DNA of 61,321 bases. Source: a bacterium (GTDB lineage: Bacteria > Patescibacteriota > Minisyncoccia > Phycocordibacterales > UBA12445). The position numbers were made by a program, and so were the translations under genes. The notes beneath the pieces are model-generated. The model was not told the origin of the DNA. It ran no database searches and worked only from the letters and a program-made list of their open reading frames with translations. Positions 3,134-51,834 of the stretch are shown here, piece by piece. The stretch's first letter is position 1, and every line of letters begins with the position of its first letter. Where the stretch lies: positions 1 to 61,321 of the forward strand of contig JAUSIP010000004.1 in the NCBI GenBank assembly GCA_030648005.1, written 5' to 3'.

Positions 3134-3709
3134 TTAAGCGTTCTGACTGAATTTTTTGATGCCCAACCAGATCAAAGAAATTAAAGCTAGCCCAAGGATG
3201 ATGACGCGGAGGTAATCGTCCATATCAGACCAGTAGCGGATCGAGCCGATTATAAAGGAAAGTACTCCGCCCATAGATAATCCAAGTGAGACAGGCGTGT
3301 TCTCGCCCGCATAGTAACCGGCGAACATTGAGAGCATACCGAGTACAACTAAGGCCACGAATACGTTGCGGTTGTAAACTCTGGAGGTGTCTTCATAATT
3401 CTTACTGCAGGTAAATTGCACATTACAATATCCGCGATACACGGAAGTGTACTCTCCGGCCGGTGTGGTAAATGGGGCCGGTACCATCTTCTGCCCCTTA
3501 GGATAATACTCCGCGCTCTCGTTCCACTGACCGCCGACAGCAAGGCAAGAATCTTTCGAATCCGGCGGGACATTAACCTGTTCTACCTTACAAAAATTCT
3601 CATATACCGGCGCTTTATAGACCAGCTTGATGGCAAAGTTGAAAAAAAGGTTAAGTACAATGACGATAGCGAGCGCTAAAGTCCACTTAAATATATTGTT
3701 TGTTTTCAT
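3134..3709 (-). CDS. hypothetical membrane protein (N-terminal TM, Cys-containing extracytoplasmic segment, 3 C-terminal TMs)
   Basis: Hydrophobic segments WTLALAIVIVLNLFFNFAI, VFVALVVLGMLSMFAGYY, LGLSMGGVLSFIIGSI and VIILGLALISLIWLGI. ATG 3709 is preferred over GTG 3745 because TATAAT (3721-3716) ends 6 nt before it. Confidence 0.6.
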   Translation of the reverse strand: MKTNNIFKWTLALAIVIVLNLFFNFAIKLVYKAPVYENFCKVEQVNVPPDSKDSCLAVGGQWNESAEYYPKGQKMVPAPFTTPAGEYTSVYRGYCNVQFTCSKNYEDTSRVYNRNVFVALVVLGMLSMFAGYYAGENTPVSLGLSMGGVLSFIIGSIRYWSDMDDYLRVIILGLALISLIWLGIKKFSQNA

Positions 3710-3752
3710 GCTTATATTATAAACCCTTTTATGAGTTTTTACCACATCGCCT

Positions 3753-3888
3753 CACAGTTTAAACTGTGGAATATGTTAAATTTTCAATGTCTGGTTGAGG
3801 AAAACCCTTAAACTAAAGAGTCGACTCTGTTTTCCGACCCGAGGACTTGGAAATTTAATATGTTTCAAAGTTTAAAGTGGGCGAATAC
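3753..3888 (+). repeat. AT-clamped hairpin element, copy A (family with 49420-49550 and 51724-51808)
   Basis: About 130 nt aligns with the reverse complement of 49420-49550. Outer arms 3771-3791 and 3844-3861 pair. Core is GTCTGG 3789-3794, TT, GA, helix GGAAAAC 3799-3805 with GTTTTCC 3829-3835, GA, CCCGAGGAC 3838-3846. Confidence 0.7.
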
Positions 3889-3894
3889 AAACGC

Positions 3895-3923
3895 TTGACA
3901 AAAAAAGTGGCCTATGCTATACT
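3895..3923 (+). promoter_or_regulatory. sigma70-type promoter of the cold-shock gene
   Basis: TTGACA 3895-3900, 17-nt spacer, TATACT 3918-3923. This predicts a ~85-nt 5' UTR, which is typical of csp genes. Confidence 0.6.
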
Positions 3924-4014
3924 TGATGTACATAAAGAGTTGTGGTTCTAAAACAAGTCGAGTTCTTAGGTATCATAGAAATCTTGTGTACTTTAATAGA
4001 TATCAAACTAGCCA

Positions 4015-4215
4015 ATGACAGGAACAATAAAGAAATTGATCTCTGACAAGGGTTTTGGTTTCATCACTGCCGAGGGTCTTGCTAAGGATCTTTTCTTCCA
4101 CAGCAATTCTCTCAATGGTGTTCAGTTCACTGAACTTCATGAAGGTGATTCTGTATCTTTCGATACAGAGCAGACTCCAAAGGGCCCGGCCGCTGTAAAC
4201 GTACAGCGAGCGTAA
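4015..4215 (+). CDS. cold-shock domain protein (CspA family)
   Basis: RNP1 is KGFGFI and the RNP2-like motif is DLFFH. At 66 aa it is a full-length CSD, and a strong terminator follows. Confidence 0.9.
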   Translation: MTGTIKKLISDKGFGFITAEGLAKDLFFHSNSLNGVQFTELHEGDSVSFDTEQTPKGPAAVNVQRA

Positions 4216-4217
4216 GA

Positions 4218-4254
4218 CAAAAAAATCCCCTACCTCAGGTAGGGGATTTTTTTG
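4218..4254 (+). terminator. Rho-independent terminator after csp (symmetric A/T flanks, potentially bidirectional)
   Basis: ATCCCCTACC 4225-4234, loop TCA, GGTAGGGGAT 4238-4247 (10 bp), followed by a T-run. Confidence 0.85.
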
Positions 4255-4289
4255 TTAACCAACATCTCCTATCTTCCGCGTCTCGCTTC

Positions 4290-4375: not shown

Positions 4376-4434
4376 TCTCTCCTCGCTCTACATCGAAGTC
4401 TGAAAGTTTTAACAAGAGTCAAAAAAAATAAAAA

Positions 4435-4462
4435 CCGTCCGATGCAAATCGGGCGGTTTTTA
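4435..4462 (+). terminator. Rho-independent terminator/attenuator about 60 nt upstream of the MOSC gene
   Basis: CCGTCCGAT 4435-4443, GNRA loop GCAA, ATCGGGCGG 4448-4456 (9 bp, one G-U), then TTTTT. Confidence 0.7.
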
Positions 4463-4525
4463 TATTGCAAATCAGTGTTCTCTAATATAGGCTGTAATAG
4501 GAAAATACAGAGGAGGTGCGTTGGT

Positions 4526-9311: not shown

Positions 9312-10814
9312 TCACTTTGAAACTCGGAGAATATTGGAAGGGATACCACCCATCTGGCCCATCGAGTGCTCGTACCTGATGGCAGGTGAACCCGGATTGA
9401 AAGGAATGTTCAGTACTGCCCGAACCATCTTCTCAACTCTGTCGCGCTCCAGAACGAGGTCTTCCGGCGACAACGTATCAGTAAAGACGTAAGCGTTGTA
9501 GCCTCCGTCAGGATCACCCTTGTAGTAGTCAGCAACTAGATTATAATCAACTTCGATCTGGAAGAGTCTGTCTCCCGTTCTCTTGTAGGTATAGATGTAA
9601 ACACCGGGCCTGCTTGGATCCGGGACAGCTTCATCATAGTAAGGAGTACCAGCGTAACAGGTGATGATCGTAACATCGAAATCTGCAGGCTTCACCTCGA
9701 GCAGCCAGTCAGCAGTATCCTTGATCGTCTCCAGGCTTTCACCCGGATGACCAATAGACATCAGTGCCTTAACCTTGAGTCCGTGCCTCTTGGCAATCTC
9801 CATACAGCGGGTGTTCTCTTCTCGTGTTGCCTGCTTGTTAATATTTGTCAGAATTCTCGAGGAACCGGACTCGAAGCCAACAAGAATCCAGCGGAAACCG
9901 GCCTCATACATAGCTTTAGCCTGAGCGTCAGTGAAGAGCTGAGACTTGATGAATCCGCGAAGCCTCCATTCAACACCAAGATCTCGCTGGGCCTTAGCAA
10001 TGAGATTCATCAGCTCGATTATCTTCGGGTTAACATTGAGCTCGTCATCGTACATCATAAAACCCTTGACGCCGTAAGTCTTATAAAGACTGATCATCTC
10101 ATCGACGATATTCTGCGAAGTTCTCATTCGGATCTTTCGGAGCATAGGAGATTCTCTACCACCACAGAAGCCACACCCGAAGGGGCAGCCGAGTTGCGCG
10201 ATCAGAGAAAGCGCAGACACCCCATCAATAGAGTAGTGGTAACTAGAAACGTCTACCAGATCTCTTGCGGGAAAAGGCAGACCAGTCAGCATTGAGTTAG
10301 ACAGGAAAAGAGGAGACCTTGGATCGTCGGCATCAACGAGTTTTGAGGCATCAGGATCGCAAGCATAAAGTATTGCCTCTTCACCGTCGCCAGCAACCAG
10401 CACATCAAACATGGCTTCAGCCTGGCGCATAGCCTTCACAGCCCGGCCGACTATTCCAATCTTAACCTCCTTCTTATAGGCGGCATTTACTAGCGTAATA
10501 TGCGGGCCACCGAGGATGACCTTCGCGCCGGGCTTGACCTCTTTGATAACACGAAGGATCTCAGCGACAGCCGGCATGAGTGGAGTTGTAGCTGTGATAC
10601 CGAAGATATCGCATATAGAATTCTTCGCATGATCACGGACCACTTCAAGAAAATTGTCAACTCCCGACAAGTCAAGCATCTCAATTCTAGACCCCATCGC
10701 CCTAAGTACCGCGGCAACCTTCAGAATTCCGAGACTCATGAAGACTCTCTCATCCAAAAGAAAGATTGATGGCGGAGTGATCAAGCAGATACTCTTAGGA
10801 ACGGTTCTCCTCAC
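9312..10814 (-). CDS. B12-binding-domain radical SAM enzyme
   Basis: CPFGCGFC is the CxxxCxxC motif. The N-terminal Rossmann-like cobalamin-binding-type domain shows ICLITPP...VILGGPH. Total length 500 aa. Confidence 0.75.
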   Translation of the reverse strand: MRRTVPKSICLITPPSIFLLDERVFMSLGILKVAAVLRAMGSRIEMLDLSGVDNFLEVVRDHAKNSICDIFGITATTPLMPAVAEILRVIKEVKPGAKVILGGPHITLVNAAYKKEVKIGIVGRAVKAMRQAEAMFDVLVAGDGEEAILYACDPDASKLVDADDPRSPLFLSNSMLTGLPFPARDLVDVSSYHYSIDGVSALSLIAQLGCPFGCGFCGGRESPMLRKIRMRTSQNIVDEMISLYKTYGVKGFMMYDDELNVNPKIIELMNLIAKAQRDLGVEWRLRGFIKSQLFTDAQAKAMYEAGFRWILVGFESGSSRILTNINKQATREENTRCMEIAKRHGLKVKALMSIGHPGESLETIKDTADWLLEVKPADFDVTIITCYAGTPYYDEAVPDPSRPGVYIYTYKRTGDRLFQIEVDYNLVADYYKGDPDGGYNAYVFTDTLSPEDLVLERDRVEKMVRAVLNIPFNPGSPAIRYEHSMGQMGGIPSNILRVSK

Positions 10815-10912
10815 TGCACACCCCCTAGTTTTAAGTCAAAGGACTATCGTTTATATAAAAATATAAAGAATCCGGTCTGTAAAGTCGATATTGACAACCA
10901 GACTATTTATAA

Positions 10913-11899
10913 TTACTGTTTCCCCTCTTTTAACTTCAACAACCAAGATTTGTTTTTGTTGAACCAGTCTATGTAAAGCGCAACCCCTTTATCGATCTTA
11001 ATCTTAGGGTCAAAGCCGAGCTCGCGACGGGCCTTAGTAACGTCGGCGAAGTTCTCCTTCACGTCCCCAGGCTGCATTGGAAGCATTTTAAGTTTGGCTT
11101 TCTTATTAAGATTCGTCTCGATAAGTTTTATAAAATTCATCAAACTGATAGGGTTATCGCCACCAAGATTATATATCTCATAATTTAAATCTTTCTTATT
11201 CAAAATCGCAATAATCCCATCAACAATATCACTTACGTAAGTGAAGTCGCGTCCCATCTCGCCGTTATTATAAACATCTATCGGTTTGCCTAACAAAATA
11301 CTTTTAGTGAATTTAAATAGTGCCAGATCGGGACGATTATAGTCGCCATAGACAGTAAAGAAGCGCATACCGGCCGTCTCTATACCATACAAATGATGGT
11401 ACGAGTGAGCAAGTAGTTCATTAGCGCGTTTAGAAGCGGCATAGATCGAAATCGGCTGATCAACACGATGATCTTCAGAAAATGGCGAAATAGTATTCTT
11501 ACCATATACGGAGCTAGACGAGGCATATAGAACTCGCTTGATCTTATTATTTTTAGCAGTTTCAAAGATATTCATAGTTCCGAGATAATTTGCCTCGGCA
11601 TAAGCCCATGGATTCGTCAGCGAATACCTGACTCCAGCTTGAGCTGCAAGGTGGATGATCACTTCCGGCTTCTCTTTTTTTACTATTTTATCTAAAGCTT
11701 TATAGTCAGCAATATTCGTTTTGTAGAATTTATAATTCTGGCTTTCCAACAAAATTTTATTTCTTCTGATTTTCATCCTGATATCGTAATAATCAGTAAT
11801 ACTATCCACGCCAACTACTCGATATCCATCATTCAAAAGCCTCTTGGCTAAGTGGAAGCCGATGAAACCAGCTGTGCCTGTAACCAAAATTGTTTTCAT
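10913..11899 (-). CDS. NAD-dependent sugar-nucleotide epimerase (UDP-glucuronate 4-epimerase-like SDR)
   Basis: GTAGFIGFHL, LAAQAGVRYS and the YAASK catalytic YxxxK. Overall similar to Cap1J/UDP-GlcA 4-epimerases. Confidence 0.7.
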   Translation of the reverse strand: MKTILVTGTAGFIGFHLAKRLLNDGYRVVGVDSITDYYDIRMKIRRNKILLESQNYKFYKTNIADYKALDKIVKKEKPEVIIHLAAQAGVRYSLTNPWAYAEANYLGTMNIFETAKNNKIKRVLYASSSSVYGKNTISPFSEDHRVDQPISIYAASKRANELLAHSYHHLYGIETAGMRFFTVYGDYNRPDLALFKFTKSILLGKPIDVYNNGEMGRDFTYVSDIVDGIIAILNKKDLNYEIYNLGGDNPISLMNFIKLIETNLNKKAKLKMLPMQPGDVKENFADVTKARRELGFDPKIKIDKGVALYIDWFNKNKSWLLKLKEGKQ

Positions 11900-49419: not shown

Positions 49420-49550
49420 GCGAACCTTAAACTACAAATATATTAAATTTTCAAGTCCTCGGGTCGGGAAACAGGACACAAGTTGTCTAACAAAGGTTTC
49501 CCTCAACCAGACATTAAAAATTTAATATATTCTGTACTTTAAGGCTGTGA
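49420..49550 (-). repeat. AT-clamped hairpin element, copy B, inside the groES-groEL spacer
   Basis: Its reverse complement aligns with 3753-3888. Core is GTCTGG (49512-49507), TT, GA, helix GGGAAAC (49502-49496) with GTTTCCC (49472-49466), GA, CCCGAGGAC (49463-49455). Confidence 0.7.
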
Positions 49551-49561
49551 AGCTTGAATCG

Positions 49562-51723: not shown

Positions 51724-51808
51724 AGTCTATTTTAGATTTTGAAGGTCTGGCCGAGCCCTTCCATCAAAGGGCGAAGGAGATCCGAGGACGTTAAAAATCT
51801 GAAATAGA
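51724..51808 (+). repeat. AT-clamped hairpin element, copy D (divergent), 27 nt upstream of the SBP gene
   Basis: A 16-bp outer stem forms from GTCTATTTTAGATTTT 51724-51739 and AAAATCTGAAATAGAC 51793-51808. Core is GTCTGG 51744-51749, CC, GA, helix GCCC 51754-51757 with GGGC 51768-51771, GA, linker, CCGAGGAC 51781-51788. Confidence 0.5.
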
Positions 51809-51834
51809 CGAAGCGGAAATACACTAAACAACCA

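Follow-up and report, generated by a model that had tools for sequence, protein, structure and literature searches.

Three copies of a long, asymmetric hairpin lie in the 61-kb window, by which we mean the whole stretch of DNA that was analysed. Copy A occupies the divergent spacer between a minus-strand gene for a membrane protein (start near 3711-3745) and csp, and copies B and C are sense-oriented within the groES-groEL and secG-SBP spacers. Pfam searches supported the neighbours to which the initial annotation had assigned the three copies, namely csp (cold-shock domain), groEL together with groES (Cpn60 and Cpn10) and the SBP_bac_5 gene (SBP), with secG as the gene upstream of copy C. The nearest homologues of the host GroES were those of Candidatus Vogelbacteria, Patescibacteria. 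The elements and their parts are as follows:

3753-3888, plus strand: copy A, whole element (covariance model, 51.7 bits, E = 2.3e-8)
about 3755-3879, plus strand: copy A, hairpin proper
3755-3788, plus strand: copy A, AT-rich 5' outer arm, partner of 3847-3879 (fold and inverted-repeat search)
3789-3799, plus strand: copy A, 5' core strand GTCTGG-TT-GAG (pattern match)
3799-3835, plus strand: copy A, variable inner helix GGAAAAC/GTTTTCC around a 23-nt apical loop (3806-3828)
3836-3846, plus strand: copy A, 3' core strand GA-C-CCGAGGAC, with GGAC:GTCT and CC:GG paired and GA bulged
3847-3879, plus strand: copy A, 3' outer arm
49420-49555, minus strand: copy B, whole element, which fills the spacer between groES and groEL (51.8 bits, E = 2.1e-8)
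49512 to 49455, minus strand: copy B, core (pattern match)
51725-51809, plus strand: copy C, 'CC' subtype GTCTGG-CC-GAG...CGAAGGAGAT-CCGAGGAC, in the secG-SBP spacer (54.4 bits, E = 6e-9)
51745-51789, plus strand: copy C, core (pattern match)

The homology of about 130 nt that had been described between copies A and B was confirmed by MAFFT alignment, in which it extended from CACAG to near GTTTAARGT. A repeat finder matched copy A to the reverse complement of copy B at 84% over 51 nt (3759-3809 with 49492-49542) and at 92% over 39 nt (3827-3865 with 49436-49474). The third, divergent copy reported earlier was recovered at 51725-51809, where pattern and covariance model agree. The composite pattern GTCTGGNNGAG-N15-45-CCGAGGAC occurred exactly three times in the window (3789-3846 plus, 49455-49512 minus and 51745-51789 plus) and was absent from 100 shuffles of it, and a covariance model trained without the window copies (R1) found precisely A, B and C on the strands listed (E = 6e-9 to 2e-8), its next-best matches in the window being ordinary terminators (E > 0.06).

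The long-hairpin fold proposed for these sequences also held, as the inverted repeats of copies A, B and C exceed all other local ones of the window in length and their RNA folds on the listed strands reached -48.1, -47.5 and -44.8 kcal/mol (z-scores of -6.6, -6.8 and -5.2, respectively), with the opposite strands folding more weakly. The compensatory change in the inner helix can be read directly from copies A and B (GGAAAAC/GTTTTCC vs GGGAAAC/GTTTCCC) and amounts to one A-U pair replaced by a compensated G-C pair, and the 23-nt apical loops are unrelated between the two copies, as had been stated.

Copy A ends near 3880 and a predicted sigma-70 promoter (TTGACA-17-TATACT, extended by TG and matching the consensus at 11 of 12 positions) is located at 3895-3923, between copy A and csp, so that copy A probably lies outside the csp transcript. 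No T-run was present 3' of copies A, B or C, and a terminator scan reported no terminator at any of the three.

Distribution and anatomy of the hairpin family

An exact pattern of 21 bases was compared with the genomes of 185,579 species, one genome each, the pattern having been lengthened because a 17-base version gave GC-rich chance matches (at least 120 matches in viral contigs, among those listed GC-rich chance matches inside ORFs without hairpin context). The scan returned 65 loci, 54 of them from 32 low-GC assemblies, while the other 11 were GC-rich, lay within ORFs and came from unrelated phyla. Several of the low-GC assemblies are unlabelled, and those with a lineage label were Patescibacteria without exception, carrying the labels Paceibacterota, Nomurabacteria, Vogelbacteria, Parcubacteria and Minisyncoccia and including MAGs labelled Saccharibacteria. 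The search for further copies that the initial annotation had proposed, made by pattern scan and checked with the covariance model, thus yielded 58 copies outside the window in 32 assemblies, or 61 copies in all. A single assembly yielded as many as 8 copies in the short pieces of it that were fetched, the DNA read around copies outside the window being 8-20 kb or less in each case.

The training set of R1 comprised 30 copies, none of them from the window. The model scored every Patescibacteria copy (30 of these being its own training sequences), added one extra copy and rejected all 11 GC-rich matches, and over 442 kb of DNA from 84 related groES loci it found 0 copies. Judged from these scans of sequence, the family is real, has several copies in the genomes that carry it and is distributed sporadically. 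No Rfam 15 model matched the window or 10 other loci, in agreement with the initial annotation, which had recognised no named RNA family in the motif, and a permissive Rfam scan returned microRNA-precursor models alone, far below threshold and of a kind that fits any long hairpin. A full-text literature search found no description of the repeat family, which is apparently undescribed.

All copies have in common the sequence 5'-GTCTGG-NN-GAG...CCGAGGAC-3' and a GA dinucleotide 3' of the inner helix. GTCTGG, GAG and CCGAGGAC were dictated by the search pattern, so that all 60 copies necessarily agree in them, and the alignment displayed no added conservation at the 5' core strand of copy A beyond these pattern-fixed bases. 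The core is asymmetric, with GUCU paired to GGAC, GG paired to CC and GA bulged, and inside it follow a junction, a variable helix with GA on both strands and an apical loop. Three core subtypes were distinguished, in which TT goes with ...CGACC-CGAGGAC, CC with ...CGAGGAGAWC-CGAGGAC and TG with a fixed insert of 21 nt. The inner helix, of 3-7 bp or longer, is free to vary in both sequence and length. Outside the core, an AT-rich proximal stem is common to a lineage (for example GTTTGATTTTAAAAT/TTTTAAAATTAAAY), and the outermost stem of about 10-15 bp is different in every copy with its complementarity kept. Each copy is accordingly built of four layers, namely a copy-specific outer stem, a proximal stem, the asymmetric core and a variable apical stem-loop. 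Hairpins range in size from 85 to 135 nt around a conserved unit of about 60-70 nt, and conservation peaks at the centre and falls toward the termini. A reading of the AT-rich arms as a mini-ORF or peptide (ATG TTT GAT TTT AAA ATG TCT GGT TGA) was rejected, the start codon being unconserved among copies.

Our analysis of 30 sequences showed that outer-stem cells were paired in 85% of cases compared with 36-57% when partners were slid by 1-3 columns, that 27 of 37 pairs carried changes on both sides and that the covariation score was 0.47 against at most 0.18. The covariation noticed between copies A and B is correctly observed, and the family as a whole shows it much more strongly. The initial annotation took it as the pattern expected of a selected RNA or DNA cruciform, but it does not demonstrate a selected RNA acting in cis, since the same compensation is found in coding sequence and in antisense copies. 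The GTCTGG strand gave the more stable fold in 55 of 60 copies, with mean values of -43.7 vs -35.2 kcal/mol. This bias in folding can be attributed to the shared core and to two inherited G-T pairs, and the independent distal arms, with 19 G-T vs 14 A-C mismatches, are without strand bias.

Filled sites, empty sites and copies within genes

Orthologous sites were found filled in some genomes and empty in others. The groES-groEL spacer measures 169 nt in the window in comparison to 6 nt in L271, which is the closest relative and has a GroES 90% identical, and 3 and 4 nt in the relatives L122 and L124, and the secG-SBP spacer, likewise 169 nt in the window, measures 16-21 nt in relatives L124 and L125. 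Similar differences were seen elsewhere, the filled spacer before ndk measuring about 143 nt in L174 vs 11 nt in L189 and the filled rplJ-rplL spacer about 150 nt in L131 vs 41 nt in L185. Within coding sequence, UvrA of L150 carries an insert of 33 aa (99 nt, the whole hairpin) that is missing from the L190 orthologue, and in PheT orthologues each insert site is filled in some and empty in others. The empty sites of L189 and L271 hold no palindrome, which argues that the arms arrive with the element. An origin of the copy-specific arms by insertion into existing terminator hairpins was also considered; it fits few copies (L158, L143 and L185) and was ruled out as a general origin by the empty sites without palindrome and by in-gene inserts that include the arms. 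Copy A and its closest homologue, the copy L136 from another Vogelbacteria genome, are close over the whole element as judged by eye, and their contexts differ, copy A lying before csp and L136 after trmD.

No sharp, reproducible insertion boundary was seen, and a further 80 metagenome groES loci contained no relative close enough to fix the exact boundaries. The target-site duplications that the initial annotation had named as the sign of a MITE did not appear, as no direct repeats flank A, B, L136 or the filled-versus-empty sites, where the relatives are divergent enough for a duplication of 2-3 bp to escape. No mobilising gene was found near the copies in about 1 Mb of fetched DNA. The sole Y1 (IS200-like) transposase in this DNA belongs to L272, a locus without a copy of the element; tblastn with this protein gave no other match in the same 1 Mb (up to 8 kb around each copy), and a partnership between the two is unsupported in the fetched DNA.

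Nineteen of 60 copies reside within long ORFs, in frame and stop-free, nine in sense and ten in antisense orientation, as assigned outside the window by a codon-usage-scored gene caller with spot checks by eye and by Pfam. They affect 12 kinds of host protein, among them a XerC/D-like integrase, PolA (Pol I), TruB, LeuRS, a SAM-methyltransferase, PheT, TsaD, UvrA, TrmD, the CCA-adding enzyme and MnmA, and PheT has two distinct insert sites, both of which are filled in L142. Pfam analysis of ten hosts placed domains flanking or spanning the insert in most, with TrmD and the SAM-methyltransferase having their matched domain downstream of the insert only, and alignment of the L172 MnmA to solved MnmA structures located about 20 extra residues precisely at the element. 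Of the six reading frames, in-gene copies keep about three open, compared with 0.75 in shuffles and 0.7-1.2 in intergenic copies. Selection for read-through translation would leave such a pattern, which is unexpected for a spliced element, and this sequence-level signal indicates that in-gene copies are translated and not spliced out. The same element nucleotides are read by their hosts in differing frames (GLAE..., WSGRA... and RSGG...), and conservation is thus at the level of nucleotides rather than of the peptide. A profile of the encoded peptide, compared with 5.8 billion proteins as a gauge of the scale of in-gene insertion, was set aside as it had no statistical power.

Between co-directional genes, intergenic copies were antisense in 20 cases and sense in 7, counts that include lineage-specific expansions and so do not represent independent events; in L187, checked by eye, a minus-strand element separates a holB-like gene from frr, both of which are on the plus strand. 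The co-orientation with the next gene that had been pointed out earlier applies to all three copies of the window but does not extend to the family. Old orthologous copies were recognized at holB-frr (L187 and L190), in LeuRS (L133 and L135), in MnmA (three genomes) and at PheT site 2 (three genomes, with host proteins about 50% identical). At these sites the core is kept and the arms have diverged with compensation, and the core nucleotides are identical, synonymous positions included. With host proteins no more than about 50% identical, such core identity calls for ongoing conversion or else for a true function at the nucleotide level. In LeuRS, the arms of the L133 and L135 inserts are homologous but the core subtype is CC in the former and TT in the latter, and the MnmA insert of L139 is inverted with respect to those of L134 and L172.

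Nature of the repeat

The copies are likely to represent a dispersed, non-autonomous palindromic repeat, a selfish DNA specific to Patescibacteria whose closest analogue is the Rickettsia palindromic element (RPE). This interpretation draws on the dispersal and copy number of the element, its filled and empty sites, its in-frame residence, in both orientations, within essential genes, the purging of stop codons, the kept complementarity of the arms and the lack of an Rfam family. Among the options that the initial annotation had listed, the repeat alone survives, and in modified form, as the element is a dispersed multi-copy repeat in 32 assemblies but departs from a classical MITE in its variable termini and lack of duplication. 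A small RNA was not upheld, and a cis-regulatory or stabilising leader is contradicted by copies that are dispersed, located within genes, mostly antisense in spacers and present or missing at orthologous sites, and by the position of copy A upstream of a predicted promoter. The window copies probably lack a dedicated regulatory role; copies B and C would put hairpins of about -45 kcal/mol into the groES-groEL and secG-SBP transcripts as a side effect, which could affect processing or stability. Copy A, for its part, is placed between two divergent promoters.

According to this selfish-repeat interpretation, hairpins would appear whole at sites that are empty in relatives and would persist where they are harmless, either in spacers or, as in-frame and stop-free inserts, in surface loops and linkers of proteins. 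The conserved core may serve as a cis site for a trans-acting enzyme that recognizes hairpins, and exchange between copies by recombination or gene conversion, for which the proximal arms are suited as they are conserved and complementary to each other, may keep the core uniform. As the arms are inverted repeats, the same exchange could swap core subtypes or flip the orientation of the element at an old site, and arm complementarity might be kept by selection or by hairpin-templated repair. Certain observations run against a selfish origin. Central conservation is the reverse of that in a MITE and resembles a structured functional nucleic acid, the persistence of copies in very compact genomes argues against pure junk, no mobilising gene and no duplication were found in the DNA covered, the sense strand folds better in 55 of 60 copies and the core is kept at old sites. 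A more specific and speculative proposal, to which we assign a minor chance, is that the core (GUCUGG / CC-GA-GGAC with the GA/GA-flanked helix) is the active or recognition site of a hairpin-specific mobilisation or homing system that re-copies the unit of about 60 nt, in one orientation or the other, into the apices of hairpins already present, those within essential genes among them. If true, this would define a new class of mobile element in Patescibacteria and would explain identical codons in hosts diverged by about 50%, the subtype differences and the arm complementarity, and a new mechanism of mobilisation acting at the core would deserve interest beyond this phylum.

Heavily covarying stems around a core that is invariant, asymmetric and in part non-canonical are typical of structured RNAs. 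In such a role the element could stabilise mRNA, be a site of RNase processing, bind a protein (GA/GA tandem, bulged helix) or give rise to a small RNA transcribed from the GTCTGG strand. The greater stability of that strand in 55 of 60 copies, the co-orientation of all three window copies with the next gene and the conservation of core nucleotides beyond the needs of the encoded peptides would suit such a function. We nevertheless regard it as improbable, as the preponderance of antisense copies in spacers (20 vs 7) and the mixed orientation within genes (9 sense, 10 antisense) mean that most copies would show the reverse complement of the motif in mRNA, and the strand bias can be traced to the shared core together with two inherited G-T pairs and is absent in the distal arms. 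The location of copy A upstream of the predicted csp promoter, the lack of an Rfam match in the window or 10 other loci and the filled or empty state of orthologous sites weigh in the same direction. A DNA site used by the host, comparable to REP/BIME (gyrase, IHF), has an equally small chance, and RNA-level function and a host-used DNA site are in our estimate about equally possible. Here the core would bind a chromosomal protein for topology, recombination or priming of ssDNA replication, and copies would be kept by selection. This would agree with a core that is kept at old orthologous sites while arms and host proteins diverge, with persistence in very compact genomes, with distal arms whose lack of strand bias fits duplex or cruciform DNA, and with the 20:7 bias against gene direction, as for a feature that senses the direction of replication or transcription, although these orientation counts are not independent and include lineage-specific expansions. 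Most sampled relatives, however, are without the family (0 copies in 442 kb), which is thus not essential to the lineage, copies in essential genes resemble tolerated accidents more than placed sites, and no candidate binding protein was identified.

Chance similarity or ordinary transcription terminators can be practically dismissed. Some outer arms elsewhere do resemble bidirectional terminators (L158, L143 and L185) and R1 weakly matches true terminators at window positions 4211-4262 and 4420-4472, but the pattern was observed three times against zero expected, E values of about 1e-8 for the copies compare with > 0.06 for terminators, no T-run follows the window copies and copies also occur inside ORFs.

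The genomes of Patescibacteria rank among the smallest and most compact in bacteria, and their mobile DNA is little known. Should the selfish reading be correct, selfish DNA can persist in, and reshape, essential proteins even of streamlined genomes, and the repeat family would account for some unexplained insertions in the proteins and spacers of Patescibacteria. The covariance model provides a ready marker for annotation and for population studies at strain level. The family also offers a caution, in that strong covariation beside highly expressed genes is no proof of a regulatory RNA.

Comparison with known hairpins and repeats

As stable hairpins adjoining csp and groEL, the window copies resemble the cis-regulatory leaders and RNA thermometers at genes of the heat- or cold-shock response, examples being the cspA 5'UTR and the CIRCE/HrcA operators of groESL. 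They differ from such leaders in lacking an Rfam match, in the location of copy A upstream of a predicted promoter and in the presence of the same element in or near unrelated genes, in antisense orientation too. The CIRCE consensus is TTAGCACTC-N9-GAGTGCTAA, which is absent from the element. Likenesses to the hammerhead (CUGAUGAG...CGAAAC) and hairpin ribozyme (UCAACCAGA), the K-turn, integron attC and CIRCE were treated as no more than leads and set aside, as the element appears to misfit these motifs in consensus positions or in architecture.

A MITE is recognised by terminal inverted repeats that are conserved and stem from a parent IS, and by target-site duplications. In the present element, by contrast, the termini are least conserved, the outer arms vary from copy to copy, duplications were not seen and there is no known parent IS. 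Known MITEs (Correia, ERIC, Coxiella QMITE and others) are, like the element, small, dispersed and non-autonomous, with in-frame insertion into ORFs and hairpins in transcripts (PMC10969869, PMC5896051).

The element shares with REP a short asymmetric palindrome that is multi-copy and non-autonomous, the role of its core as an enzyme site being one that we infer here. REP and REPIN are short imperfect palindromes with conserved asymmetries and high copy number that are non-autonomous and fold as single strands, and the conserved hairpin of REP is the recognition site of the RAYT (Y1) enzyme. REP measure 20-40 bp, are extragenic and carry a terminal GTAG or CGTC tetranucleotide (PMC3733652). 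The family described here differs in having a unit of about 60-70 nt with its invariant part in the centre, no conserved terminal tetranucleotide in the alignment and one third of copies within genes (19 of 60). No RAYT gene was found to adjoin any copy in the fetched DNA.

RPE are dispersed hairpin repeats of about 100-150 bp that unusually often lie in frame in housekeeping genes as translational fusions judged fold-compatible (PMC10969869). Like RPE, the element is a dispersed hairpin repeat with no gene of its own that occurs in spacers and in frame in unrelated housekeeping genes. The mechanism that mobilises RPE has, to our knowledge, likewise not been identified. Unlike RPE, the element has a conserved, central and asymmetric core and outer arms that are copy-specific yet complementary, it may adopt either orientation at the same protein site and orthologous sites may hold different core subtypes. 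It also belongs to another phylum and is carried by several Patescibacteria lineages rather than by one genus, and no Rickettsia occurred among the labelled true matches of the genome scan. We consider that the element works like RPE without filing it as one, since the phylum differs and the likeness rests on behaviour and not on sequence homology. Among these known systems, the family is set apart by joining a conserved centre to arms that vary yet stay complementary, by the exchange of subtypes and flips at old sites and by its spread over several Patescibacteria lineages.

Modules and arm composition of the element

Copies of the hairpin-forming repeat (the element) from assembly CAZIYU01 (L149, L183, L184 and L189) carried a CC-type core, whereas their proximal arms (GTTTGATTTTAAAAT/TTTTAAAATTAAA) were those usually seen with the TT subtype, so core and arms recombine as modules. 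In alignment A2 (30 copies; columns 4-16 and 86-98) the copy-specific 5' arms were A-rich and 76% purine and the 3' arms correspondingly pyrimidine-rich, a skew that by symmetry holds for both strands.

Insertions within UvrA and PheT

UvrA of metagenome contigs L252 and L254 (around nt 1357-1773) contained an insert of ~25 aa, VGRLDRSLRSLVGMKQSNKGRRPIKHSN, which is different from the element but sits in the same loop that the element occupies in UvrA of locus L150. Inserts seem repeatedly to land in, or be tolerated by, this loop. Additionally, one pheT gene (L142:2451-4346) possessed two copies of the element, both in frame:

2700-2741, antisense, copy 1
3995-4029, sense, copy 2

Transcription signals at csp and in a related genome

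In the window, csp is flanked by a promoter and a terminator and forms a compact monocistronic unit that is presumably highly expressed:

3895-3923, extended -10 promoter close to consensus (TTGACA-17-TG-n-TATACT), preceding csp by ~90 nt
4217-4255, perfect 19-bp bidirectional terminator (A7-stem-T7), directly downstream of csp

In another Vogelbacteria genome (L136:5631-5855), a homologue of copy A, the element upstream of csp, is followed by a strong promoter of the same kind (TTGACA-N17-TATACT) and then by ~200 nt of non-coding sequence with a terminator at its end. This stretch is a possible small RNA gene, for which Rfam returned no match.

A second hairpin family and an IS200-like transposase

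A second hairpin family shared the architecture of the element, with outer arms that vary but remain complementary, an asymmetric core that is conserved (CTCAC...GGGA(A)ATTCG) and a variable apical stem:

L123:10325-10430
L125:5870-5945
L272:6325-6395 (L273 is an identical entry)
L176, ~3395-3510, minus strand

In three Vogelbacteria relatives this family occupies the spacer between groES and groEL, the exact counterpart of the site of copy B in the window; it was also found in an unrelated MAG.

Locus L272 additionally encodes a transposase:

10615-11049, IS200-like Y1 transposase (Pfam Y1_Tnp)

The transposase locus lacked any copy of the element. An in-frame TGA replaces the conserved Trp of K-x-L-W-G-G; the gene is either a pseudogene or recoded. 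Two perfect hairpins of the type typical of IS200 left ends lie upstream of it.
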